A stretch of DNA of 64,000 bases from Bacteroidota bacterium (GCA_016193485.1 JACPRZ010000061.1:6855-70854), one strand, 5' to 3'. Positions 24,737-63,314 are shown, counted from the stretch's first letter. Notes: generated from the letters alone by a model not told the origin. A program made the numbers and translations.

Positions 24737-24778
24737 TGCCTCTGATCAATAATATTTTAACCAATTTTGGCAAAAGTA

Positions 24779-24939
24779 ATAAATCCGAATAACAAAATCC
24801 AAAATTCGAAAGAATATCTAATAACAAAAATTAAAAAACAAATGCAAATACAAACTGCCGCTATCTGTCAGATGTTTGTTTTTTTGAATTTTGACATTTC
24901 TATTTCGAATTTGTTTCGGGATTCGGATTTCGGATTTAT
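24779..24939. repeat. ~160-bp inverted AAATCCG-array element, copy 1 (copy 2 inverted at 62871..63047)
   Basis: The reverse complement shares blocks with copy 2: taaatccgaaatccgaa, aaatgtc(c)aaaattcaaaa, tttgtatttgcatttg and gttattagatatt. Confidence 0.8.
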
Positions 24940-36151: not shown

Positions 36152-36853
36152 ATGAACATCATTGAGGTAACCGAACTTATCAGGAAGGAAATTCTCATTG
36201 AGTTCCGGAGGAAGTCATCCCTTGGAGGTCTCATCCTTTATACGGTAAGCGCGCTCTTCATTTTTTTTCTGACCATAAAAAAATTCAATGATCCTGCAGT
36301 CATTAATGCAATATTGTGGATTACCATTCTCTTTGGCAGCGTGAATGTTGCGGCAAGGAGTTTTATTCAGGAAGGGGAAGGCAGCCACTTTTATTTCTAT
36401 ACACTGGTTTCTTCGCAAACCCTGATCATTTCAAAAATCATTTATAATTTTTTTATCATTGTAATGCTTTCATTTATTGCTAGCGGTGCGGTCTGGTTGT
36501 GGTCAGGCAACCTGGGAGGCCTGCCTGCCTTGATGGAAATGCATGAGCAACGGCAGGCAGGGAACTTTCCGGAATTCCTGCTCATCATTTTGCTGGGTAG
36601 CACAGGGCTGTCCACGCTTCTTACTTTTGTCTCATCCATTTCGTCAAAATCAACCAACCAGCCGATGTTGATGGCCATCTTGAGTTTCCCGCTTATCTTA
36701 CCCCTGCTGATGGTCGTCATCCGGTTAACCGAAGCGGTTTTTGAAGGAAGCGGTTTCAGTGAAATTATCAAGGATATAAGCATACTCGCATCGCTTGACA
36801 TAATTATTATTACTCTTGCGATAATTCTGTTTCCTTATCTCTGGAAGGAATAA
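36152..36853 (+). CDS. ccmB: Heme exporter protein B
   Basis: LIRKEILIEFR, LMAILSFPLILP and ILFPYLWKE. Carries a 14-aa repeat-derived insertion. Confidence 0.9.
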   Translation: MNIIEVTELIRKEILIEFRRKSSLGGLILYTVSALFIFFLTIKKFNDPAVINAILWITILFGSVNVAARSFIQEGEGSHFYFYTLVSSQTLIISKIIYNFFIIVMLSFIASGAVWLWSGNLGGLPALMEMHEQRQAGNFPEFLLIILLGSTGLSTLLTFVSSISSKSTNQPMLMAILSFPLILPLLMVVIRLTEAVFEGSGFSEIIKDISILASLDIIIITLAIILFPYLWKE

Positions 36854-36858
36854 AAATT

Positions 36859-37009
36859 GAGTCCACTCTAATAAGTCATTTTTGCCACAAAAACACGAAA
36901 ACACAAAAATTGCACTAAAAATAAATATATCATAATAAAGATTTTGTGGGATTTCGTGTTTTTGAGATTTAGTGGCATTTTACTAAATTTTACTTTTTAT
37001 AGCGGACTC
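36859..37009. mobile_element. MITE-like element with GAGTCC terminal inverted repeats enclosing a GCCAC...GTGGC unit
   Basis: Left end GAGTCCACTCTAATAAGT, right end (reverse complement) GAGTCCGCTATAAAAAGT, with AAAATT on both flanks. Confidence 0.55.
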
Positions 37010-37076
37010 AAAATTTAGAGATTTGAGATTTTGGGATTTTAAATTCTGAAATCAAAAAATCCAAAAATAGTTTGTC

Positions 37077-37748
37077 ATGTCAACCTGGTGGTGGAAAATA
37101 GTTGTGGTCGTGCTCCTATGTTACACCGTGATAGCCGGCTTCCTTGGATCCGTTCCTGCACTTCCCATCCTCCATGAATCAATCCGCAACCTCTATTTTC
37201 ATGTTGCCGTTATGTTTGCCACCATTATTTTGCTGACGGTTTCACTTTTTTTCAGCGTCCGTCATCTTTCCGCATTCCGGCAGCATGATGATCTGAAAGC
37301 CGCTGAAGCGGTGAATGTCGGTGTTTTATTTGGGATTCTCGGTGTTCTTACCGGGTCGGTATGGGCGAAATTTACATGGGGAACCTGGTGGGTCAAGGAT
37401 GCCAAACTGAACGGCACCGTGGTCGCTCTTCTCGCCTACTTCGCTTATATGATCCTGCGCGACTCGATCACCGACAGGCAGAAGAAAGCCCGCATTTCGG
37501 CTGTTTACAATATCTTTGCATGGGTGATGATGCTGATTTTTTTACTTATCCTGCCGCGTATGACTGCATCCCTTCATCCCGGCAGCGGTGGTAATCCCGG
37601 ATTCGGAACGTATGACCTCAGCAATACCATGAAACTCGTTTTTTATCCCGCTGTTGCAGGATGGACGCTTCTCGCTCTGTGGCTCTGGGAGATAAGGGTC
37701 AGGATCAGGATCATAAATGATAAAATTTTAAATGAAAAAAATTTATAG
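37077..37748 (+). CDS. ccmC: Heme exporter protein C
   Basis: SIRNLYFHV and TGSVWAKFTWGTWWVKDAKL (WWD-like motif). Confidence 0.92.
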   Translation: MSTWWWKIVVVVLLCYTVIAGFLGSVPALPILHESIRNLYFHVAVMFATIILLTVSLFFSVRHLSAFRQHDDLKAAEAVNVGVLFGILGVLTGSVWAKFTWGTWWVKDAKLNGTVVALLAYFAYMILRDSITDRQKKARISAVYNIFAWVMMLIFLLILPRMTASLHPGSGGNPGFGTYDLSNTMKLVFYPAVAGWTLLALWLWEIRVRIRIINDKILNEKNL

Positions 37749-37998
37749 AATATTTTTTGCACGCTTCCCCTTCAGGGGGCTGGGGGGTGTTATCTTAGCA
37801 CCTTTGATTTTTCTTTTCCCTGCAGGAACCGCTTTTGCCGGTGTGGAAATGGCTGATGCATTGAGAGCGTCAGGGAAAATATATGTAGTGGTTGCCGTCC
37901 TTTGCCTGATTTTTGCCGGGTTGATTTTTTACCTGATCCGGATAGACCGGAAAGTATCGGGAATTGAAAAGAAACTTAAAGAAAAAGAGTCGTCATGA
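37732..37998 (+). CDS. ccmD: CcmD family protein
   Basis: MADALRASGKIYVVVAVL...LIFYLIRIDRKV, located between ccmC and ccmE. Confidence 0.8.
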   Translation: MKKIYRIFFARFPFRGLGGVILAPLIFLFPAGTAFAGVEMADALRASGKIYVVVAVLCLIFAGLIFYLIRIDRKVSGIEKKLKEKESS

Positions 37999-38381
37999 AG
38001 CGTTCGCATCTCATTGCAATAATTATCATTGCGCTTGCCGTTGGCGCCATTATCGCCACTATTTCCGACTCGGGCACTTATGCCGATTTCAGCGATGCTT
38101 TTGCCAATGAAGGAAAAGAATTTCATGTTGTCGGACGGCTGGCGAAGGATAAGGAGATGATTTATGACCCGTTATCAGACCCGAACCTTTTTATTTTTAC
38201 CATGGCAGATGATAAAGGAACCGAAAAAAAAATCTTCCTCCATAAAGCAAAACCGCAGGAATTTGAACTTTCAGAACAGATCGTGGTCATAGGGAAGGGC
38301 GTCAGCGGTGAATTCCATGCAAGGGAAATATTGATGAAGTGCCCGTCAAAGTACACGGATAACCAGGTGAGGGCGGAGTAG
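37995..38381 (+). CDS. ccmE: Heme chaperone CcmE (CxxxY type)
   Basis: N-terminal TM helix and an ILMKCPSKY motif. Confidence 0.92.
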   Translation: MKRSHLIAIIIIALAVGAIIATISDSGTYADFSDAFANEGKEFHVVGRLAKDKEMIYDPLSDPNLFIFTMADDKGTEKKIFLHKAKPQEFELSEQIVVIGKGVSGEFHAREILMKCPSKYTDNQVRAE

Positions 38382-38444
38382 CGGAGTGGTACCTGCCTGC
38401 CGGAACACCGGAATCAACTGCAATATTGAAAAAAACATGATGGT

Positions 38445-40898
38445 ATGACCTACCAGGGTGAACAACTTATTTATGGATATGCCGGCAACCTGCTGATATA
38501 CCTTTCTTTTACCGCTGCACTTGGTTCCGCACTGCTTTATTTTTTCGCTTCGGATAAAAACGAAATCAAATGGAGAAAATCGGCAAGAATAATTTTTCTT
38601 GTCCAGTTTCTTTCAACTGCATGCATCATCCTTCTTCTTCTCTTCCTGCTGGTCAACCACCGTTTTGAATATTATTATGTTTGGCAGCACTCCAATTCTG
38701 AGACACCGCTTCACTATATTGTATCCTCTCTCTGGGAAGGACAGGAAGGAAGTTTTCTCATGTGGATGTTCTGGAACGGGATGCTTGGGATATTCCTTGT
38801 AAAAACGGCACAAAAATGGGAACCGGTAACAATGGTCACAGTTTCGCTGGTGCAGGTTTTTATTGCATCAATGCTGCTGGGAATAGATTTTTTCGGATAT
38901 AAAATAGGTAGCAACCCGTTCATTCTTTTGCGTGATCATCCCGACATGGCGAATATGCCTTTTGCCAAAGTACCCGATTATTTATCCAAAATTGACGGCC
39001 GCGGGCTGAATCCTCTCCTCCAGAATTACTGGATGCTCATTCATCCCCCGGTTCTTTTTCTCGGTTTTGCTTTGACCTTAATACCTTTTGCTTATGCTGT
39101 TGCAGGATTATGGATAAAAGAATACGATACCTGGCAGAAACCTGCATTGCCTTGGATTTTCTCAGGAGTCGCTGTACTGGGTGCCGGAGTGCTTATGGGG
39201 GGGGCGTGGGCTTATGAAGCGCTTAGTTTCGGTGGCTTCTGGGCATGGGACCCCGTGGAAAATTCATCCCTAGTGCCCTGGCTTACGCTTGTAGCGGGAG
39301 GACATTCCCTGCTCATCAATATCCATAGCCGGCAGTCGTACAGGACTTCCTTTGCACTGCTCATCATCACATTTGTTCTTGTCCTTTATTCAACTTTTCT
39401 TACCCGCAGCGGAATTCTAGGTGATACATCGGTGCACGCCTTCACCGATCTCGGCATGTCGGGGCAATTGCTGGTTTACCTTCTTTTTTTTGCAATTGCA
39501 GGGTTCGCCCTGTTGCTCAAGAACTGGAAACAGATTCCATCCCACCGGCAGAATGAACATCTCCTCTCGCGTGAATTCTGGATGTTTACGGGCGCTTTGG
39601 TGTTGTGCATATCCTCCTTCCAGATCATCTTTACCACTTCCATACCGGTAATAAATAAAATATTCGGTGCCGGACTGGCTCCCCCGGTCAATCCTGCGGC
39701 CCATTACAACACGTGGCAGGTGCCCTTTGCCGTGATCATTGCGTTGTTCTCAGGGGCAGGGCTCTTCCTGAAATTCAGGAATACGGACAGGAAATTATTT
39801 CTGAAGGATATTCTTTTACCCGTGATAGTGGCGCTCATTCTGTCACTGGCAATAATTCTGGGATTATCCATTAAACGGCCTGACCTGATCGTACTGCTTT
39901 TCACTTCGCTCTTTTCCATCGGAGCCAACACAAAATACATTTTCAGGGTTTTAGGGGGGGGGTGGATGAAAGCGGGTAAAGGTCTTGCCCATACCGGTTT
40001 TGCCATGATTCTCGCAGGCGCTTTGATATCCACCCACAAAAGTGTTGTGATCTCCCAAAACTCATCCGGCATTGATGTCACAGCGCTTGGAAAAGAATTC
40101 TCCAACCGCGAAAACATCCTGCTGATGGTTGGGGACACTCTCCGCATGCATGCCTGGCCGGCCGTGCCTGCCGGCAGGCAGGTAGGCAGGGGTGAATACC
40201 TTGTCAGTTACCGGGGCAAGGAACTGCACGGTAAAAATGTGCTCTTCAGGATTGACTTCATGAAACCGGGGGAAAAAGATGGCGACACCGCACTGCACCT
40301 TTTTTCTCTTTTCCCGCGTGTGCAACTTAATCCGAAGATGGGAAATGTTGCTGAGCCCGACACCCGCCACTTCCTGACTAATGATGTTTACACCTTTGTG
40401 AATTTTGCCGATCTGGATACCGATAAAAACGATTCGGTTAAAATTTCTGAACATACCATTTCCATTGGCGACACCATTTTGCTTTCCAATAGCATGATTA
40501 TCCCTGTGAATCTTTACCGGTTACCGGTAAATGATTCACTGATTCTCATGGCCGGGTTGAGTCCTGATTCGCTTGAATTAGCGGTAAAAGCGGAACTGGA
40601 AATCATCCGGATGAAAAAAAAGAGCGGCTATATCTATCCTGTTTTTATTATCAGTAAAAACAATTTCATCTCGTTCATTGATGATGAAGATAAAGAGACG
40701 GGCATATCCGTTTCATTCGTGCGCATCTTCCCCGAAATGGGAAAGATCCACCTGCGGATAACGGAAAGAAAAAATGAAAGCCGCGATTTCATTATTATGA
40801 AGGCAATCGTATTCCCGTATATAAATATTTTGTGGGCGGGTGCGGTGGCGATGGTGCTGGGAACCGTTATTTCGGTAATTAAAAGAATTAAAAAATAA
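38445..40898 (+). CDS. ccmF: Cytochrome c biogenesis heme lyase CcmF
   Basis: SLWEGQEGS, LLQNYWMLIHPP, GGFWAWDPVEN, FLTRSGIL and AHTG. Confidence 0.95.
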   Translation: MTYQGEQLIYGYAGNLLIYLSFTAALGSALLYFFASDKNEIKWRKSARIIFLVQFLSTACIILLLLFLLVNHRFEYYYVWQHSNSETPLHYIVSSLWEGQEGSFLMWMFWNGMLGIFLVKTAQKWEPVTMVTVSLVQVFIASMLLGIDFFGYKIGSNPFILLRDHPDMANMPFAKVPDYLSKIDGRGLNPLLQNYWMLIHPPVLFLGFALTLIPFAYAVAGLWIKEYDTWQKPALPWIFSGVAVLGAGVLMGGAWAYEALSFGGFWAWDPVENSSLVPWLTLVAGGHSLLINIHSRQSYRTSFALLIITFVLVLYSTFLTRSGILGDTSVHAFTDLGMSGQLLVYLLFFAIAGFALLLKNWKQIPSHRQNEHLLSREFWMFTGALVLCISSFQIIFTTSIPVINKIFGAGLAPPVNPAAHYNTWQVPFAVIIALFSGAGLFLKFRNTDRKLFLKDILLPVIVALILSLAIILGLSIKRPDLIVLLFTSLFSIGANTKYIFRVLGGGWMKAGKGLAHTGFAMILAGALISTHKSVVISQNSSGIDVTALGKEFSNRENILLMVGDTLRMHAWPAVPAGRQVGRGEYLVSYRGKELHGKNVLFRIDFMKPGEKDGDTALHLFSLFPRVQLNPKMGNVAEPDTRHFLTNDVYTFVNFADLDTDKNDSVKISEHTISIGDTILLSNSMIIPVNLYRLPVNDSLILMAGLSPDSLELAVKAELEIIRMKKKSGYIYPVFIISKNNFISFIDDEDKETGISVSFVRIFPEMGKIHLRITERKNESRDFIIMKAIVFPYINILWAGAVAMVLGTVISVIKRIKK

Positions 40899-40901
40899 CC
40901 C

Positions 40902-41519
40902 TTGAATCCAACACCAGGCACTGGTCTTATTCCCATTGTTGAAATATTTCATTCCATCCAGGGCGAGGGATACTTTTCCGGCACTCCTGCGGTTTTTATC
41001 CGGCTTGGCGGGTGTGATGTGGGTTGTCACTGGTGCGATGAAAAGAATAGTTGGGACAAAAACAACTGGCCTTTTGTCAGGGTTGAGAAAATTGTAAAGG
41101 AGACGGTAAAATACCCGGCTGATATTGTTGTCATTACAGGGGGGGAGCCGTTAATGCACTCCTTAAATGAACTTACTGCCGGGTTACGGAAGGCAGGGAA
41201 AAGAACTCATCTTGAGACCTCAGGCGCTTACCCGCTTTCGGGCAGATGGGACTGGATTTGCCTGTCGCCAAAAAAATTCATGTCTCCGCACAATGAAATT
41301 TACCGTAAAACCGGTGAACTGAAAATTATCGTTTACAACAAAGATGATTTCAGATGGGCAGAGGAACAGGCGAAAAAGGTTTCCCGGAAATGTAAACTCT
41401 TCCTGCAGCCGGAGTGGAGCAGGAAAAAAGCGGTATTGCCGGTGATTGTTAACTATGTGCAGAAATTCCCGGAGTGGAGGGTTTCAATGCAAATCCATAA
41501 GTACGTGCAGGTGAAATAA
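40902..41519 (+). CDS. queE: 7-carboxy-7-deazaguanine synthase (radical SAM)
   Basis: EIFHSIQGEG, RLGGCDVGCHWCD, TGGEP and QIHKY. Confidence 0.93.
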   Translation: MNPTPGTGLIPIVEIFHSIQGEGYFSGTPAVFIRLGGCDVGCHWCDEKNSWDKNNWPFVRVEKIVKETVKYPADIVVITGGEPLMHSLNELTAGLRKAGKRTHLETSGAYPLSGRWDWICLSPKKFMSPHNEIYRKTGELKIIVYNKDDFRWAEEQAKKVSRKCKLFLQPEWSRKKAVLPVIVNYVQKFPEWRVSMQIHKYVQVK

Positions 41520-41690
41520 TGCTTTAATATGAGTATCGGAGCGAACGCATATTCCTATTCCCTATTCCATTCATTCTCCCGATAGCCATCGGGATTCCAT
41601 CCTTACATTTTTCCAATCTTCCATTCTTCCTCTATCCCTCCATCCCTCTCCCCATTTCATCCGTCTCATTTTCTTTCCGACCTTTGCCCC

Positions 41691-43661
41691 ATGAGTGTAA
41701 AAATTTTTCCACCTGTTTATTTTTCCTGCCTCACAATAATCCTGTTTTTATATTCGTCTTTCTCGTATTCCCAGGAAGTTAAAATCAACTATACCACCGC
41801 CAATAAAAAAGCCATTAAACGCTACGAGAATGCAATTGCTTTATATAATCAGGCGCAATACCGGCAAACGGAAGAAGAACTGCTGAAAGCCATTGCTATC
41901 GATTCCACCTTTGTGGAAGCCCATACCCTGCTTGGCGATTTGTACGACATTACGAAAAGATTTGACCAGGCGATTTCATCTTACCGCAAAGCAGTTACTA
42001 TTATGCCGGACTTTTTCCCGGGAACTTTTTTCAACCTCGCCAATCTTGAATTCAAAAAAGCGCAATATGAAGAGGCGCTGGATCATTATGAAAAATATAA
42101 TTCTTCTTCCGAAAGCGAACGCCAGGCGAAATATAAACGCATTGCGGAACAAAATATCCGCAACTGCCGCTTCGCCATTGAAGCGATGAAGAACCCGGTG
42201 CCTTTTAATCCGGTTAACCTTGGAGATAGCGTAAACACGCCCAACGATGAATACCTGCCTGCTCTTACTGCCGATGAACAGACCCTGCTCTTTACCATGC
42301 GCCATCCCGCTACCGAACAAACCTATCATCCGCATGACGGAACCGAGGAGGATTTTTTTATCACCACAAAGGAAAGCGACCGCTGGAAGCGGATAAATAA
42401 ATTACCCCCCCCTGTAAATACTCCGGGCAACGAAGGCGCCCACTGCCTTACTCCGAACGGCCAGATCCTCATTTTCACGGGCTGCAACCGCACCGATGGG
42501 TCGGGCAGCTGCGACCTGTATTTTTCCAAAAAGAATGGGGATGAGTGGAGCAAGCCGGTAAATATGGGTACGCCCATTAATACCGGTGCATGGGAATCGC
42601 AACCATCAATGTCTTCTGATGAAAAAACACTCTATTTTGTAAGCAATCGTCAGGGTGGAAAAGGCGATAAAGACATCTGGATGAGCCGCCTGGGGGATGA
42701 CGGGTTCTGGGCCACGCCTGAAAACCTGGGTGACACGATCAATACTCCCGGAACCGAACAATCCCCGTTCATCCACCCCGACAATCAAACCCTCTATTTC
42801 GCTTCATCAGGCCATACCGGCATGGGGCAGGAAGACATTTTTTTCTCAAGACGGCTGGAAAACGGTTCATGGTCAAATCCTGTGAACCTGGGATATCCCA
42901 TTAACACCAATGCGGATGAAAGCAGTTTGTTCGTAACGGCAAGCGGCACTACCGCTTATTTTGCTTCGGGGAAAGATAAGGGCGATCTTGACCTTTATTA
43001 TTTTGAACTTCCCGAAAGGGCGAGGCCGGTGACGGTATCCTATATGAAGGGACGGGTTTTTAACTCCAAAACCAGCGAACCGGTTGAAGCGAACTTTGAA
43101 TTAATTGATCTCGGCAGGAACGAACTCATTGTTAAATCAAAATCAAATAAAGGAAACGGGGAATTTCTCGTTTGCCTTCCTGCGGGACGGAATTACGCTC
43201 TCAATGTTTCAAAAAAGGGCTTTCTCTTTTATTCCGACCATTTTGAACTTGACAGGGCTTCTTCATCCGTGGATCCCGTGATAAAAGATATTGCGCTTTC
43301 ACCGGTTGAACCGGGAGCAAAAGTCATCCTTAAAAATATTTTTTACGAAACCGACAGGTTTGACCTCAAACATGAATCACGGGCGGAACTTGAAAAACTG
43401 ATCCAGTTCCTCAGACAGAATCCGGGAGTTTCAATTGAAATCAGCGGGCATACCGATAATGCAGGCGACAAAAAATATAACCAGGATTTATCTGAAAAAC
43501 GCGCAAAGTCGGTTTATGATTACCTGGCGGGGAACGGCATTTCGGCAGGTAAACTCTCTTTCAGGGGATATGGCGACACCCAACCCGGATTTCCGAACGA
43601 TTCGGATGAGAACCGCGCAAAAAACAGGAGGACGGAGTTCAGGATTATCGCTGTTCAGTAA
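41691..43661 (+). CDS. OmpA-family protein with TPR and PD40 repeats (PorE-like)
   Basis: N-terminal TPR, repeated PVNLG..INT...E..P blades, and IEISGHTD...NRRTEF. Confidence 0.9.
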   Translation: MSVKIFPPVYFSCLTIILFLYSSFSYSQEVKINYTTANKKAIKRYENAIALYNQAQYRQTEEELLKAIAIDSTFVEAHTLLGDLYDITKRFDQAISSYRKAVTIMPDFFPGTFFNLANLEFKKAQYEEALDHYEKYNSSSESERQAKYKRIAEQNIRNCRFAIEAMKNPVPFNPVNLGDSVNTPNDEYLPALTADEQTLLFTMRHPATEQTYHPHDGTEEDFFITTKESDRWKRINKLPPPVNTPGNEGAHCLTPNGQILIFTGCNRTDGSGSCDLYFSKKNGDEWSKPVNMGTPINTGAWESQPSMSSDEKTLYFVSNRQGGKGDKDIWMSRLGDDGFWATPENLGDTINTPGTEQSPFIHPDNQTLYFASSGHTGMGQEDIFFSRRLENGSWSNPVNLGYPINTNADESSLFVTASGTTAYFASGKDKGDLDLYYFELPERARPVTVSYMKGRVFNSKTSEPVEANFELIDLGRNELIVKSKSNKGNGEFLVCLPAGRNYALNVSKKGFLFYSDHFELDRASSSVDPVIKDIALSPVEPGAKVILKNIFYETDRFDLKHESRAELEKLIQFLRQNPGVSIEISGHTDNAGDKKYNQDLSEKRAKSVYDYLAGNGISAGKLSFRGYGDTQPGFPNDSDENRAKNRRTEFRIIAVQ

Positions 43662-43678
43662 AATTAAAATCAATCAGA

Positions 43679-44611
43679 TTGAAACAGGGAACCGTTATAA
43701 AAGTAGCGGGAAATATTTTCTCCGTCAGAACGGATGCAGGTGATTGTACAACTTGTTATGTGAAAGGACGACTCCGCATTGAAGGATTAAGGGCCACCAG
43801 TCCTGCCGCAGTTGGCGACAGGGTGGATTTTGAGAGGAGTGAATCCGGACCCGGCCTGATTGCCCGCATCCATCCGAGAAAAAATTATATCATCCGCAAA
43901 GCCGTAAAAAAATCAAGCGAGGTGCAGGTAATTGCTTCCAATATTGACCAGGCGCTGCTCATGGTTTCACTTGTTTCGCCAAAGACGCTTACCGGTTTTA
44001 TTGACCGTTTTCTCGTAACTGCTGAAGCGTACCGGATACCTGTTATTCTTGTTTTTAATAAAACGGATCTTTACGGTAAAAAGGAGCAGGAGGAACTTGC
44101 ATATTTCAGCCGTACCTACACCGGAGCGGGTTATAAATGCATGCACACTTCAGTAACGGAGAATAAAAACATTGATTCGGTAAAAGATACTCTGAAAAAC
44201 AAAATCACTTTATTATCCGGAAATTCCGGTGTGGGAAAATCATCCATGCTTAACCTGATCCAGCCGGACCTCTATCTGAAAACGGATGAGATTTCATCTG
44301 CCCATGATACGGGGAAGCATGTAACCACATTTGCCGAGATGATAACAATGGGCAATAACGCCAGGATCATTGATACACCGGGAGTAAAGAGTTTCGGCAT
44401 CGTTGACTTTTACCGCAATGAACTCTTTCACTATTTCCCGGAGATGTTCTCCCGCAGTAAGGAATGTAAATTTAATGACTGTACGCATATCAAAGAACCG
44501 AAATGTGCTGTCAAACGGGCAGTGGAAAGCGGTGAAATCGCTTCTTTCCGGTATGAGAATTATTTAAAAATATTCCGGGATGAGGATATGGATGTTGAAT
44601 ATGATGATTGA
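43679..44611 (+). CDS. rsgA: Ribosome small subunit-dependent GTPase A
   Basis: NKTD, GNSGVGKSS, IIDTPG and a C..C.H...P.C zinc site. Confidence 0.96.
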   Translation: MKQGTVIKVAGNIFSVRTDAGDCTTCYVKGRLRIEGLRATSPAAVGDRVDFERSESGPGLIARIHPRKNYIIRKAVKKSSEVQVIASNIDQALLMVSLVSPKTLTGFIDRFLVTAEAYRIPVILVFNKTDLYGKKEQEELAYFSRTYTGAGYKCMHTSVTENKNIDSVKDTLKNKITLLSGNSGVGKSSMLNLIQPDLYLKTDEISSAHDTGKHVTTFAEMITMGNNARIIDTPGVKSFGIVDFYRNELFHYFPEMFSRSKECKFNDCTHIKEPKCAVKRAVESGEIASFRYENYLKIFRDEDMDVEYDD

Positions 44612-45435
44612 TTAATTTTACTTCTATGTTCGTTAAAACAACTGAGTCCGTTTCACCGCACCAACACCTTGAGAAAATGGTGGTGCGGAAACTTCTTGCC
44701 GGCATGAATGCAGAGGATCACAAGGTTGCTGGTGTAATTAAAAAAATATTACCCGATATTGAAATGGTTGTGAAGGTCATTGAAAAAAAGATGAAAAAGG
44801 GGGGGAGATTGTTTTATATCGGTTCCGGCACAAGCGGCAGGTTGGGAATTGTTGATGCTTCGGAATGTCCGCCTACGTATGGAGTAGATCACGGACGAGT
44901 AATAGGAATCATTGCAGGAGGTGACAGGGCAATCCGCAAAGCGGTTGAATTTGCCGAGGATGATATGGAGCAGGGATGGAAGGACCTGCAAAAATACAAA
45001 ATATCAAAAAAGGATATCATTATCGGGATATCCGCTTCCGGCACAACTCCCTATGTTGCCGGAACTGTTCAATCATGCAACATGAACGGAATAGCCACCT
45101 GTGGAATTACCTGCAACGGGGGAAGTCCGCTGGCGATGGAAGCGAAATTTCCCATTGTTGCCGTAGTGGGTCCGGAATTTGTCACCGGAAGCACCCGTAT
45201 GAAAGCCGGTACCGCTCAGAAATTAATCCTCAACATGATCTCCACTTCGGTCATGATACGTCTTGGTAAAGTAAAAGGCAATAAGATGGTGAATATGCAA
45301 CTCACCAATAATAAACTCATTGACCGCGGCAGCAGGATTATTGCGGAGGAATTATCGCTCCCGTATGAACGGGCAAAAGAACTTTTGTTATTACACGGCA
45401 GCGTGAGGAAAACTTTAGAACGGTCTGGCAAATAA
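44608..45435 (+). CDS. murQ: N-acetylmuramic acid 6-phosphate etherase
   Basis: GSGTSGRLG...DASECPPTYG and GSTRMKAGTAQK. Confidence 0.96.
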   Translation: MINFTSMFVKTTESVSPHQHLEKMVVRKLLAGMNAEDHKVAGVIKKILPDIEMVVKVIEKKMKKGGRLFYIGSGTSGRLGIVDASECPPTYGVDHGRVIGIIAGGDRAIRKAVEFAEDDMEQGWKDLQKYKISKKDIIIGISASGTTPYVAGTVQSCNMNGIATCGITCNGGSPLAMEAKFPIVAVVGPEFVTGSTRMKAGTAQKLILNMISTSVMIRLGKVKGNKMVNMQLTNNKLIDRGSRIIAEELSLPYERAKELLLLHGSVRKTLERSGK

Positions 45436-45477
45436 TATTTTTCCTTATATTTGCTCTAATCTTTAACCAATCCCATC

Positions 45478-46290
45478 ATGAAAACATCTTTATTATCAAT
45501 CGGGGCATCGGTACTGTGCCTCGCTTTAATCGGATTATTTCCGATGACCTCCTGCCGGAAAAAAGGAGAAACACCGGTATTGCCGCCCCAGGAAAGTTTT
45601 GTTATAAACACAGATGCGCTTCCTGATTCGGCAAGCGGAAAAACTGCAGCAGATACAACTATGGCGAAGTGGTTCTATTCTGCTGCAACTGTTGGCATAT
45701 GGAATACCGTGCTGACAGTTACCTTATTTGTCCCTGTCGCTTCTTATGTTGAAGCGCTTAAACAAACCCCCGTATGGGATAAAAAAGAGAAAAAGTGGAG
45801 TTGGGTATTCAGCGTGACGGGGTTCTGGAATATTACCTATACCTGTAAACTTTACGGATGGGTTAACGGCACCAATTATGAGTGGGAGATGTATATCAGC
45901 CAGGCAGGCGGGCCACAGAATGTACTCTGGTATGAAGGCGTCACGGCCAAAGACCAGTCACATGCCGAGTGGACTCTTTATAAAGACATCAATAACCCGG
46001 TCAAATTCATCGGTGTTGTTTACAATAAAAATGGCGATGGAACTTCCAATATAAAATATACCAACATATTGGAAGGCGATGCAGGAAATGGAGGGTATAT
46101 TTATTATGGACTTAGTACTGATCCCCAGTATAATGCTTTTTATGATGTGAATTACATTCAGAATTCCAAACTAACCGAAATCCGCTGGAATACCACTTCC
46201 AAAATCGGTAAAGTGCGGGATAACGTTCAATTCGGTGATTCTGACTGGCATTGCTGGGATACCATGCTGAAAGATGCGGTGTGCCCGTAA
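45478..46290 (+). CDS. Hypothetical lipoprotein
   Basis: Lipobox MTSC followed by RKK. TATATTTG promoter at 45446-45453. Confidence 0.75.
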   Translation: MKTSLLSIGASVLCLALIGLFPMTSCRKKGETPVLPPQESFVINTDALPDSASGKTAADTTMAKWFYSAATVGIWNTVLTVTLFVPVASYVEALKQTPVWDKKEKKWSWVFSVTGFWNITYTCKLYGWVNGTNYEWEMYISQAGGPQNVLWYEGVTAKDQSHAEWTLYKDINNPVKFIGVVYNKNGDGTSNIKYTNILEGDAGNGGYIYYGLSTDPQYNAFYDVNYIQNSKLTEIRWNTTSKIGKVRDNVQFGDSDWHCWDTMLKDAVCP

Positions 46291-46362
46291 TTGCATTATT
46301 TCTGATTTCGATACTATTCACTCCGCCTTTGGCGGACAGGGGGCTGGGGGGTGAATAGGTAA

Positions 46363-46494
46363 CTTCTCAATACTTGTAGGTAAAATTTTACATTTTGCAT
46401 TTTACATTTATTGTTTTTTTGACAATGTAAAATATAAAATTCTAAATATAAAATGTAAAAGTTCAATCACCAAATACCTGTGGATATTGAGAAG
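46363..46494. mobile_element. MITE-like element with ~20-bp imperfect terminal inverted repeats around an inverted TTTTACA array
   Basis: Left end CTTCTCAATACTTGTAGGTA, right end (reverse complement) CTTCTCAATATCCACAGGTA. Confidence 0.5.
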
Positions 46495-46639
46495 CCGTGC
46501 TAAAGATACTCCCCCTTCAGGTGGATGGGGGATGAATAGTAACTTGGTTTCTTAATCTAATTAACAGAGGCGTTCATGGACAAACGGGAACGCCTTTGTT
46601 ATTATATACCTTTGTACGTTTTTCAAACCGTCAGGAATT

Positions 46640-48712
46640 ATGGATGCGGATATCAAATCAAAAATCATTGAATTATCCATTACAGGTATTAAAGATATCT
46701 GGAATTTTGAAGTTCCTTCCGGGTCTATTATCATTCAGAAAACCCGTCCTGAATTCACTAGCGATATTACACTTGTAGTATTTCCTCTCACCAAATTTAC
46801 AAAAACCTCTCCCGACAAAACCGCACAACAACTCGGTGAATATCTGAAAAACCGTATTCCTGAAATTGAAGGTTTTAATGTAATAAAAGGATTCCTCAAT
46901 ATATCTCTTATCAATTCTTTCTGGATTTCCTTTCTTCATGACATGTATGATGATACCCGTTTCGGTTTCACCCCCCCCGGCTCATCCGCATCGGTTATGG
47001 TTGAATTTTCTTCGCCAAATACCAACAAGCCGCTGCATCTCGGCCATATCCGCAACAACCTGATCGGTAATTCACTTTCGGAGATTCTTTCGGCAACAGG
47101 CAATAAGGTCATTAAAGCGAACCTCGTAAATGACAGGGGAATTCATATCTGTAAGTCAATGTATGCATGGAAAGAATGGGGAGCCGGTGAAACTCCGGAG
47201 TCATCGGGAATAAAGGGAGATAAACTTGTAGGAAAATATTATGTTGAGTTTGAAAAGAGATTAATTGCACAAACAAAGGAAAAAATAATAAGCATTTATA
47301 CACAAATTATTAAACAAGCAACCCCTATAAATGAAATTAAAAAAGAAGATATAAAATTAGCAACCTTTGATGCTATACCCAGAACAATTGAAACGGATTA
47401 TGATTACAATGAAATTAAAGATGCTTTTGCAAGAGCGCTAATTACTTACAATCAAACCGGAAGATTTCCTTCTATTGAAGAAGACAAATTTATCATTGAA
47501 TATTTTAAAAAATATACTTCTTTATTTAATGATGCGCAGGAAATGCTCCGTAAATGGGAGGATGGCGATGAAACTACTATTTTCCTCTGGAAAAAAATGA
47601 ATGACTGGGTTTATAAGGGTTTTGAAACTACTTACCGTGAACTGGGCATTTCATTTGATAAAACTTACTATGAGTCGGAGACATATCTTTTGGGAAAAGA
47701 GATAGTGGATGAGGGTGTCCGGAAGAATGTATTTATCCGAAAAGAAGACGGTTCCGTATGGTGTGATTTAACCGATGACGGGCTGGATGAAAAACTCCTT
47801 CAGCGTTCGGACGGCACTTCCGTTTATATGACACAGGATATTGGCACTGCAGCAGAAAGGTTTAAGGAATTTCCCGGAATGAAAAAATTAATTTACGTGG
47901 TTGGAAGCGAACAGGAGTATCATTTCAAGGTACTTTTTCTGATATTAAAAAAACTCGGCTATTCCTGGGCCGGTGACTGTCATCATCTCTCCTATGGAAT
48001 GGTTGACCTGCCGGAAGGGAAAATGAAATCGCGCGAAGGAACCGTTGTGGATGCCGATGACCTGATTGAGGAAATGTACGAAACGAGCAGGCAAACAACA
48101 AAAGAACTCGGTAAACTTGAAGGAATTCCCGATAAAGAAAAAGAATCAATATGCAGGATGATCGGCATGGGCGCATTAAAATATTTTATTCTGAAAGTTG
48201 ACCCAAAGAAAAGGATGGTTTTTAATCCGAAAGAATCCATTGACTTTGAGGGAAACACCGGTCCTTTTATTCAATACACTTATGCGAGGATACAATCGTT
48301 GTTGAGGAAAGCAGGGGACTGGAGAAAGGTTACGGGAGACCTGCCTGCCGGCAGGCACGGCAGAAGACAGGACACAGGGAATACATTAAAGATCCAACCG
48401 GTAGAAAAAAATGTGATTAAATTGATTTTTGATTTTCCAGGAGTCATCAGGCAAGCAGCAGATGAATTTAACCCGGCTGTTATTGCAAACTACATGTATG
48501 AACTCGCAAAAGAATTTAATCATTTCTACCAGACGGTCCCGGTATTGCCCGCCAAAGGCGGGTCCCTGCCTGCCGGTCAGGCAGGCGCCTCTGGCGGAAA
48601 GGCGGAAGATGAGGAGCGGTTGAATTTCCGGCTGCGGTTATCCGATACTACCGGAAAAATAATCAAAAAAGGTATGAACCTGCTTGGGATAAATGTGCCG
48701 GAGAAAATGTGA
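46640..48712 (+). CDS. argS: Arginine--tRNA ligase
   Basis: EFSSPNTNKPLHLGH, KMKSREG and LLGINVPEKM. TACCTTTG promoter at 46607-46614. Carries three insertions. Confidence 0.97.
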   Translation: MDADIKSKIIELSITGIKDIWNFEVPSGSIIIQKTRPEFTSDITLVVFPLTKFTKTSPDKTAQQLGEYLKNRIPEIEGFNVIKGFLNISLINSFWISFLHDMYDDTRFGFTPPGSSASVMVEFSSPNTNKPLHLGHIRNNLIGNSLSEILSATGNKVIKANLVNDRGIHICKSMYAWKEWGAGETPESSGIKGDKLVGKYYVEFEKRLIAQTKEKIISIYTQIIKQATPINEIKKEDIKLATFDAIPRTIETDYDYNEIKDAFARALITYNQTGRFPSIEEDKFIIEYFKKYTSLFNDAQEMLRKWEDGDETTIFLWKKMNDWVYKGFETTYRELGISFDKTYYESETYLLGKEIVDEGVRKNVFIRKEDGSVWCDLTDDGLDEKLLQRSDGTSVYMTQDIGTAAERFKEFPGMKKLIYVVGSEQEYHFKVLFLILKKLGYSWAGDCHHLSYGMVDLPEGKMKSREGTVVDADDLIEEMYETSRQTTKELGKLEGIPDKEKESICRMIGMGALKYFILKVDPKKRMVFNPKESIDFEGNTGPFIQYTYARIQSLLRKAGDWRKVTGDLPAGRHGRRQDTGNTLKIQPVEKNVIKLIFDFPGVIRQAADEFNPAVIANYMYELAKEFNHFYQTVPVLPAKGGSLPAGQAGASGGKAEDEERLNFRLRLSDTTGKIIKKGMNLLGINVPEKM
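48340..48360. mobile_element. 21-bp palindromic element CCTGCCTGCCGGCAGGCACGG (other copies at 40162, 48565, 63005; long form at 36520; half copy at 38392)
   Basis: Exact reverse complement of 40162..40182 in ccmF. Confidence 0.75.
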
Positions 48713-62824: not shown

Positions 62825-63314
62825 TGTACTATAATATCATAACGTGGGCAAGCCACAACCAAACAAGAAAATAAATCCGAAATCCGAAACAAATCCGAAA
62901 TACAAATGTCCAAAATTCAAAAAGACAAACACCCAACGGATAGAAATAAATTTGTATTTGCATTTGTTTTTGAAATTTAGTTATTAGATATTGTTTCGGT
63001 TTTCCCTGCCTGACGGCAGTCAGGGGATTTAACTATTCGAATTTTAATCTTTGTTATCGCTAAAAGATATAAAGTTGGAATTCTGATTTTTCGTAGGGAG
63101 ATTAAAATATTTTACCAAAATGTGTCAAGATATTTTTGTTTAGGTACTAAAATCAATTTGCCACAAAAGCACCAAATCTCTAAATTACACTAAATCTTTT
63201 TATGGGATTTGGTGTTTTTGTGTTTTAGTGGCTGAATTTTCAGAGTAACAATTTCTTCTTGCCCTGTAATTCCAATCAGGAACTCAAGGTAATAATCATA
63301 ATTCAAAAACAAAC

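Follow-up and report, generated by a model that had tools for sequence, protein, structure and literature searches.

In a 64-kb stretch of a Bacteroidia genome (the window throughout this text) we found copies of a very small palindromic element, with a core of 20 nt (CCTGCCTGCCGGCAGGCAGG), in frame within ccmB, ccmF and argS, and comparisons of filled with empty sites in the same genome show that it enters DNA as exactly 20 nt without target-site duplication. The palindrome family and its in-frame copies are real. We consider it an evenly balanced proposition that this is a tiny non-autonomous element of two abutting 10-nt inverted repeats, filtered by reading frame where it lands in genes, and that it is moved by a GIY-YIG nuclease encoded in cassettes at tRNA genes. 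An initial annotation, made from the sequence of the window, had proposed a minimal non-autonomous element mobilised in trans by an enzyme encoded outside the window, and this view was supported: no enzyme able to move the element was found in the 64 kb.

The window corresponds to C53:6855-70854 of a metagenome-assembled draft genome (G000; 4.0 Mb in 72 contigs, 42.8% G+C, 92% complete). The core of the element is a perfect palindrome of two abutting halves of 10 nt each (CCTGCCTGCC and GGCAGGCAGG). The motif is commoner than expected by chance, both in the window, where it is matched four times at up to three mismatches versus never in 100 shuffles, and in the whole draft, which holds 43 exact copies, 82 copies at up to one mismatch (0 for the reversed pattern) and 107 at up to two. 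An indel-tolerant count gave 102 non-overlapping copies, 84 of them 20 nt and 16 of them 21 nt long. One frequent variant, CCTGCCTGCCGGTAGGCAGG, is asymmetric, and several copies hold another copy at their centre.

The same element was found in many other organisms. The exact 20-mer is present at no fewer than 119 loci (a lower bound) in a species-representative genome collection of 596 Gb, where about one is expected by chance. Hosts among the matches listed include Patescibacteria (Saccharibacteria, WWE3, Parcubacteria and others), Omnitrophota, Planctomycetota, Gamma- and Deltaproteobacteria, Thermodesulfovibrio, Chloroflexi and isolates of Bacteroidota (such as Winogradskyella and Flagellimonas); between phyla the flanks are unrelated and the 20 letters identical. 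Flavivirga and Longitalea are further isolates in which the motif is present. Viral contigs carry the 20-mer in 35 stretches. Within the Bacteroidia it was found, at up to one mismatch, in 66 of 401 genomes and 43 of 200 genera (0 for the reversed sequence), and the copy number is highest in G000 (82, followed by 20 and 19).

Unit length, empty sites and targets

The length of the unit was determined by removing 20 nt from each copy, joining the flanks and searching the genome with the result. Clean empty-site paralogs were recovered for 43 of 93 copies; 20 nt differ in 41 of these cases and 21 nt in two. For instance, six loci are identical, over 70 nt and ungapped, to the joined flanks of the copies at C72:30171 and C72:27349, and for the copy at C3:21260 there are two such loci at 98.6%. 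The boundaries cannot be shifted (gtgaaa/CCTG...CAGG/ttttgtg, with slashes at the junctions), and therefore there is no target-site duplication. The window itself holds such a pair: 62960-63060 aligns with the reverse strand of 24760-24850 across a 20-column gap, and since the two are only 77% identical one base is ambiguous. The family had been described at first as a 21-bp, seven-codon element, the intergenic copy at 63005 included. This had to be corrected: the main form is 20 nt long, as is the intergenic copy (63005-63024), and the 21-bp label suits only minority subfamilies (the 16 copies mentioned above).

The halves also bound larger units. In a 56-nt derivative (CCTGCCTGCT-36 nt-GGCAGGCAGG) the 10-nt halves are the termini and the 36 nt between them form a double hairpin; its 23 copies are 95-100% identical and lie at different loci, with clean empty sites. 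Other cargo-bearing forms were found in three copies each. Several targets are common to the 56-nt derivative and independent 20-nt copies (gacaatc/cgaaatc, ctaacgaacc/gctgtatgcg and gggtc/cgcc), and on the alignments the 21-nt variants and the cargo-bearing derivatives are shown to spread likewise, into the same targets. With miniature inverted-repeat transposable elements (MITEs) the element thus has in common terminal inverted repeats that bound the mobile unit, be it of 20 nt, 56 nt or with other cargo. A target-site duplication is absent from all 41 clean empty sites of exactly 20 nt, and no autonomous parent, an insertion sequence with the same ends that encodes a transposase, was found in G000: the 92%-complete genome contains no 60-4000 bp unit bounded by the halves and holding a candidate enzyme gene. 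At C14:41, C30:19692 and C30:16950 of G000 one and the same junction, cttaacgaacc/gctgtatgcgagacccgca, is occupied twice by the 20-mer and once by the 56-nt derivative; the repeat with this junction is located at the end of a 463-aa open frame.

The target sequence preference is weak (G at +1, often CG/G). Across 65 distinct insertion contexts, C accounts for 43% and T for 7% of the bases at position -1, and A for 51% of those at position -3; in the 17 copies that could be oriented, +1 is G in 15, and the centre of another copy follows the same pattern. Insertions are found, among other places, at the centres of existing copies and, where a tRNA gene has been duplicated, in the D, anticodon and T loops of the copy. 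The idea that insertion always occurs at the centre of a pre-existing hairpin was rejected, as flank complementarity over 8-nt arms averaged 4.03 versus 4.04 in controls; strong complementarity (at least 7 of 8) was enriched, at 7.5% of copies versus 1.5% of controls. The commonest landing places of the 20-mer, and the source of most empty sites, are larger AT-rich host repeats that are abundant in G000 (e.g. C56:140802-140871 and C55:10408-10477) and contain the units cacaaag and ctttgtg, cgcagat and atctgcg, tacgaa and ttcgta, and cggattt and aaatccg.

Copies within coding sequence

With a crude gene model (88.5% coding density), 78 of the 102 copies were placed in intergenic DNA, 13 at the ends of reading frames and 11 inside coding sequence. 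A plain copy would shift the reading frame, because 20 is not a multiple of three. The tabulation of lengths in coding and intergenic DNA that had been proposed was carried out, and 4 of the 84 copies of 20 nt lie inside coding DNA versus 7 of the 16 copies of 21 nt (Fisher p = 1.6e-4). The 3n length of the coding copies probably reflects mainly a survivorship filter; the earlier suggestion that it is intrinsic applies to the 21-nt subfamilies, which have spread in intergenic DNA too, and not to the 20-nt majority. Nine of ten internal copies are read in the frame CTG CCT GCC GGC AGG CAG (L-P-A-G-R-Q; p = 3.6e-4), and since the element is palindromic both strands give this frame alike. The other two reading frames of the 20-mer contain cysteine.

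In the window, variants of the palindrome are indeed present in ccmB, in ccmF and twice in argS, as is the half copy that had been placed near 38392 (Table 1). Three of the coding inserts are compound. In ccmB (20+22 nt) perfect halves, CCTGCCTGCC and GGCAGGCAGG, are separated by a unique 22 nt, TTGATGGAAATGCATGAGCAAC, and the insert folds at -13 kcal/mol (z-score -4.45). In ccmF (22+20 nt) a 20-nt copy, CGTGCCTGCCGGCAGGCAGG (40163-40182), is nested within a degenerate 22-nt outer copy (CATGCCTGGCCGGC..TAGGCAGG), and at the second site in argS (21+30 nt) a 21-nt variant with one extra T in its loop, CCTGCCTGCCGGTCAGGCAGG (48565-48585), has been inserted at TC/CG of a 30-nt double mini-hairpin that belongs to a second family (CCCGCCAAAGGCGGG TC/CGCCTCTGGCGGA). 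The copies at 48340-48360 in argS and 40162-40182 in ccmF are exact reverse complements over 21 nt, in agreement with the first reading, and this variant, CCGTGCCTGCCGGCAGGCAGG, occurs nowhere else in the genome; being identical and 8 kb apart, the two suggest a local hop. The 12-kb stretch 36520-48598 holds four or five of the about 11 coding copies of the genome, these two 21-mers among them, a clustering that could be due to local hopping but could also be the reason that the window drew notice.

Alignments with no fewer than 110 homologs per protein support the view that the coding copies are true insertions. The 42-nt insert of ccmF is missing from 112 of 112 CcmF homologs, that of ccmB from at least 115 of 119 CcmB homologs and the 51-nt insert at site 2 of argS from all 110 ArgS homologs. 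Site 1 of argS (residues ~568-578) falls in a loop of variable length, with residues in only 10-16 of the 110 homologs, so that the exact size of the insert cannot be fixed. Of the lengths of 21, 42 and 51 nt that had been put forward for the coding insertions, those of 42, 42 and 51 nt (ccmB, ccmF and argS site 2) were thus recovered, and these inserts leave their reading frames intact. The 5.8 billion proteins searched contained no close orthologs (best identity 63% for ArgS, 52% for CcmF and 46% for CcmB), and as no close relative is in the databases the ancestral empty sites in these genes were deduced from distant homologs. Coding copies also occur in the genes of an RND pump and of a PP2C/TPR protein, and in UvrA and DnaB they affect the N-terminal region.

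ArgS was modelled with AlphaFold2 (mean pLDDT 87.5); residues 569-579 and 641-653 of the model are coil with a pLDDT below 50 and lie between confident helices. The inserted ArgS peptides are predicted to form low-confidence, disordered loops, in line with the initial idea that the element writes short flexible loops into proteins. We suppose that plain 20-nt copies in genes would be lethal and hence lost, and that the survivors in ccmB, ccmF and argS would have had their frame restored, either by a second nested insertion plus 1-2 nt or through a 21-nt variant. Nearly all survivors would then be in the one cysteine-free frame, L-P-A-G-R-Q, and in surface loops that may tolerate 14-17 extra disordered residues.

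tRNA cassettes with small GIY-YIG genes and other candidate movers

The candidate mover is P0361, a protein of 85 aa encoded elsewhere in G000, which has the catalytic domain of the GIY-YIG superfamily (PF01541, E = 9.8e-16, residues 2-71; best solved relative 1zg2, UPF0213 BH0048). Enzymes of this superfamily are known as nucleases. The gene lies in a cassette between a broken and an intact copy of tRNA-Arg(CCT). In the broken copy the D loop is interrupted by the 20-mer and the T loop by a nested 40-nt pair; the reading frame of P0361 stops within the intact tRNA-Arg, the C-terminus of the protein being encoded by the tRNA gene itself, and a further 3' tRNA fragment with a T-loop insert comes next. 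All four small GIY-YIG genes of G000 are found in such tRNA cassettes, and the other three cassettes hold different GC hairpins. At C2:42008-42140 (L147 508-640) there is also a full-length copy of tRNA-Arg(CCT) whose D loop contains the 20-mer and whose T loop contains a nested 40-nt pair; it has no adjoining nuclease gene and is not called by ARAGORN. A comparable full-length tRNA, again with the 20-mer in its D loop, occurs in another genome (L104).

The association is not restricted to G000. When reading frames within 2 kb of 119 foreign copies were clustered without bias, the small GIY-YIG gene was the only recurrent neighbour, and a profile search of 154 foreign loci found a GIY-YIG gene in nine, within 300 nt of the copy in six. 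One architecture was seen at five tRNAs (tRNA-Lys in WWE3, tRNA-Gly in a Gammaproteobacterium, tRNA-Leu in Chitinophagales, a viral contig and G000): the 20-mer lies in the D or anticodon arm of a 5' tRNA fragment, after which come the nuclease gene (80-90 aa) and an intact tRNA. Among the best 18 homologs in other Bacteroidia, 16 are encoded directly 5' of a tRNA. The upstream fragments of such homologs carry the exact 20-mer, variants of it (with 1-2 mismatches or of 19 nt), halves with cargo, the TCCGCC family or another hairpin, inserted in the D loop at the point at which the downstream frame ends (GGA/TAG/AGC). At the level of genomes a homolog (E <= 1e-6) was found in 45 of 65 motif-positive versus 118 of 335 motif-negative genomes (odds ratio 4.1, p = 5e-7), a test that is not corrected for phylogeny and is in this respect a point against the proposed link.

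In a Thermodesulfobacteriota metagenome-assembled genome (L079 2751-4892) a 714-aa open frame contains both the exact 20-mer and a GIY-YIG domain match, and its C-terminus resembles a restriction-modification specificity subunit; here a whole cassette may be read through in frame. In another genome (L187 860-1340; G235 C1:5881960-5882440) a GIY-YIG gene is followed by tRNA-Leu(CAA) genes in tandem, and the variant CCTGCCTGACGGCAGGCAGG precedes each of three of the four tRNA-Leu copies.

We propose that selfish cassettes, lodged at tRNA genes, would have the hairpin as their cis element, and that a structure-specific GIY-YIG enzyme consisting of the catalytic domain only (UPF0213/SLX1-like) would cut and join hairpin DNA in trans, by which solo hairpins would spread. 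Cargo could be carried between the two halves, and entry would be into DNA loops and other sites. Mobilisation by the nuclease is what we infer from the association described above. The wider reading, a two-part mobile system of several phyla and viruses in which a tRNA-cassette GIY-YIG nuclease (SLX1/UPF0213-like) mobilises the smallest known transposable unit, a 20-nt hairpin, with LPAGRQ-type loops in essential proteins as a by-product, we hold more tentatively, somewhat short of even.

Several observations weigh against this role of the nuclease. Only the C2 gene among the four small tRNA-lodged GIY-YIG genes of G000 uses the 20-mer hairpin, and five of the six GIY-YIG matches in this genome are more than 1 kb from any copy. 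Most copies are solo, with only about 4% adjoining a GIY-YIG gene. No homolog passed the threshold in twenty of the 65 motif-positive genomes, one of them a complete genome with 12 copies, and the two best homologs (in G214 and G088) are encoded in genomes without the 20-mer. The GIY-YIG tree has little resolution and tracks tRNA type, not hairpin type. A general preference for hairpin centres was not borne out by the flanks, whose mean complementarity equals that of controls, and the exact ancestral empty sites in argS, ccmF and ccmB rest on distant homologs. To our knowledge, GIY-YIG enzymes do not join DNA strands. The adjacency could also reflect only that dead tRNA fragments are neutral, loop-rich targets. 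Co-evolution of hairpin and nuclease was considered and rejected: in a tree of 26 proteins (~85 aa), mostly of low resolution, clades follow the tRNA host and only the group with the 'other hairpin' clusters, weakly.

Much of this would also be explained by the same mobile 20-nt element and the same frame filter with another mover (a transposase or recombinase that has escaped recognition, a function supplied by phages, or the action of replication and repair on hairpins), the cassettes only collecting hairpins because the dead tRNA fragments in them provide neutral single-strand loops. We regard this as a serious possibility, on the lesser side of even. The 96% of copies that are solo, the motif-positive genomes that lack a homolog, the full-length interrupted tRNA copies without a GIY-YIG gene (C2:42008-42140 and L104), the copies on viral contigs and the failure of the GIY-YIG tree to follow hairpin type all fit it. 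However, no second gene family recurs near the copies, Y1 and DUF559 genes are unlinked to them, and G000 has no longer element bounded by the halves. Moreover, the cassette hairpin occupies one fixed D-loop site, the one at which the downstream frame ends, in different tRNAs and phyla, and therefore looks built-in rather than randomly accumulated.

The initial annotation had advised a search for genes of the RAYT/TnpA(Y1), GIY-YIG or DUF559 families flanked by the motif, and of these GIY-YIG is the only family physically linked to the element. DUF559 was rejected as a mover: none of its ten matches in G000 is within 3.6 kb of a copy, the nearest copy being 3.7 kb away.

That the palindromes are selected host motifs (intrinsic terminators, operators or protein-binding sites) and not insertions is very improbable, and this reading is largely refuted by the filled and empty pairs. 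It has in its favour that the 20-mer folds to a stable hairpin (-8 kcal/mol), that most copies are intergenic (78 of 102) and that a T run follows 22 of 106 copies. A T run is lacking at the other 84, on which ground a terminator role was rejected, and 13 copies lie between divergent genes. In addition, paralogous repeats differ by exactly 20 nt, copies are found within tRNA copies, each other and genes, and the sequence is identical in unrelated phyla with unrelated flanks.

Repetitive extragenic palindromic (REP) sequences, with the related BIME and REPIN forms, are extragenic and species-specific, have a 5' GTAG and flank the gene of their RAYT, a Y1 HUH transposase (PMC3116915; PMC6006769). 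They resemble the present element in being short GC-rich hairpins in about 100 copies per genome, non-coding, thought to be moved in trans as single-stranded hairpins and without target duplication (PMC3116915; PMC6006769). G000 has seven Y1 matches (PF01797), the common variant CCGGTAGGCAGG contains GTAG, and one degenerate copy abuts the Y1 gene at C45:36343, so that palindromes moved as REPs by one of these IS200/RAYT-like transposases had to be considered. We find this most unlikely: none of the seven Y1 genes is bracketed by the 20-mer or its halves, which led us to reject RAYT/Y1 as the mover, and around the 119 foreign copies Y1 genes are not a recurrent neighbour. In its main form the element is perfectly palindromic and free of GTAG, whereas REPs are imperfect, and the sequence is identical across phyla instead of species-specific and enters genes, tRNA copies and itself.

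An assembly or sequencing artefact, to which the 72-contig draft and some copies at contig ends (C14:41, C58:77 and C26:291) might point, is scarcely credible, given that all four coding inserts keep long frames open via compensating extra bases, that the same 20-mer is present in genomes of isolates and in complete genomes, which were produced in many laboratories and on many sequencing platforms, and that the reversed-sequence control gave 0 in 401 genomes.

Relation to known elements and further features

The closest known systems are the palindromic elements of Rickettsia, the REP/RAYT system, small dispersed repeats of Nostoc and mitochondrial GC clusters. The Rickettsia/Wolbachia palindromic elements (RPEs) are reportedly in-frame palindromic repeats of ~100-150 bp in housekeeping genes. 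Like these, the present element is a non-autonomous palindrome that lies in frame in housekeeping genes, including those of tRNA synthetases, and would add surface peptides while the protein is kept. RPEs are of ~100-150 bp, restricted to one lineage (Rickettsiales) and of frame-compatible lengths, whereas the 20-nt core has hosts in Bacteroidota, Patescibacteria, Omnitrophota and other groups, puts genes out of frame when unmodified, lies mostly between genes and is tied to tRNA/GIY-YIG cassettes. The SDR4-6 small dispersed repeats (SDRs) of Nostoc and its relatives are said to be hairpins of 21-27 nt with evidence of mobility. In hairpin size (here 20-21 nt), in filled and empty sites, in nested insertions and in having no known enzyme they are similar to our element; this is a likeness only, since SDRs are confined to cyanobacteria and have other sequences. 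We know of no reported link of SDRs to a nuclease or tRNA cassette, nor of in-frame copies in essential proteins.

The cassettes recall SegB of phage T4, a free-standing GIY-YIG homing endonuclease encoded in a tRNA gene cluster. In both cases a small selfish GIY-YIG gene lies among or at tRNA genes. Seg enzymes have their own DNA-binding domain and no dispersed hairpin, whereas P0361 lacks the separate DNA-binding domain of homing endonucleases such as I-TevI and Seg (the catalytic domain fills its 85 aa) and the hairpin sits in a duplicated tRNA fragment. The GC clusters of yeast mitochondria are mobile palindromic elements. In fungal mitochondria, mobile GC clusters or palindromic elements are small GC-rich palindromes in AT-rich genomes (PMC7218506). 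They too enter genes, in some cases in frame, as well as one another; they differ in being organellar, longer and diverse in sequence, without identity across phyla and without a tRNA/GIY-YIG cassette architecture. In size, host range, a linked Y1 gene and target duplication the element falls outside RPEs, REP/RAYT and MITEs, and our literature search found no published description of the 20-mer or of bacterial cassettes of GIY-YIG gene, tRNA and hairpin.

If its mobility holds, the element would set the lower size limit of transposable elements at 20 nt, consisting of ends only, with a footprint (no duplication, a weak target motif) that fits no known transposase family. Identity from Patescibacteria to Bacteroidota, Planctomycetota and viral contigs implies either that the element is often transferred horizontally or that its recognition by a protein is very tightly constrained. 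The proposed GIY-YIG link provides a testable candidate for the mover of very small bacterial repeats, a long-open question, and gives a possible role to the widespread small nuclease genes lodged at tRNAs. For protein evolution, it suggests a route by which selfish DNA may add disordered loops to essential enzymes (ArgS, CcmF and CcmB), with the reading frame as a filter of variants. In practice, metagenome-assembled genomes suffer from such hairpins through broken contigs and through errors in the calling of tRNAs and genes.

Table 1. Features of the palindrome family in the window and the GIY-YIG gene of G000
Feature	Position	Strand	Length	Residues	Sequence or peptide	Remarks
Empty site	24795..24805					Paralog of the 63005 host repeat without palindrome (20-column alignment gap)
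ccmB insert	36520..36561	+	42 nt	~123-136	GLPALMEMHEQRQA	In frame
Half copy	38393..38404				CCTGCCTGCCGG	ccmE-ccmF spacer
ccmF insert	40149..40190	+	42 nt	569-582	HAWPAVPAGRQVGR	In frame
Single second-family hairpin	46322..46336				TCCGCCTTTGGCGGA	Free; upstream of argS
argS site 1	48340..48360	+	21 nt		CCTGCCTGCCGGCAGGCACGG	Variant; reads DLPAGRHG
argS site 2 insert	48548..48598	+	51 nt	637-653	PAKGGSLPAGQAGASGG	In frame
Intergenic copy	63005..63024		20 nt		CCTGCCTGACGGCAGTCAGG	Two changes; within dispersed host repeat
GIY-YIG gene P0361	C2:46494-46751					Outside the window; cassette C2:46354-46880, between broken and intact tRNA-Arg(CCT)

The second mini-element family consists of one or two 15-nt hairpins (TCCGCCNNNGGCGGA); the doubled form is 30 nt, or ten codons, long, and about 14 copies are present genome-wide. 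Two units supply 30 of the 51 nt at site 2 of argS, and the 30-nt element without the 21-mer was found at C8:1903-1932, C11:13905-13933 and C56:267313-267341. Some copies lie inside coding sequence, and the hairpin also occurs in the D and anticodon loops of a tRNA-Asn fragment in a GIY-YIG cassette of another genome (L197).

Outside the window, DUF559 (Vsr-like nuclease) domains are found within long frames of G000 at C12:48822-49139, C20:116668-116979, C56:42121-42444 and C60:4748-5059 (1231, 1890, 1346 and 555 aa, respectively), with no copy of the 20-mer near; these domains appear to be inserted in frame in large proteins. ArgS has a further insertion of ~70 residues (~216-290; 47285-47510 in the window) that is missing from nearly all 110 homologs. 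It is not derived from the palindrome and is predicted to be mostly helical (block mean pLDDT 53-81).

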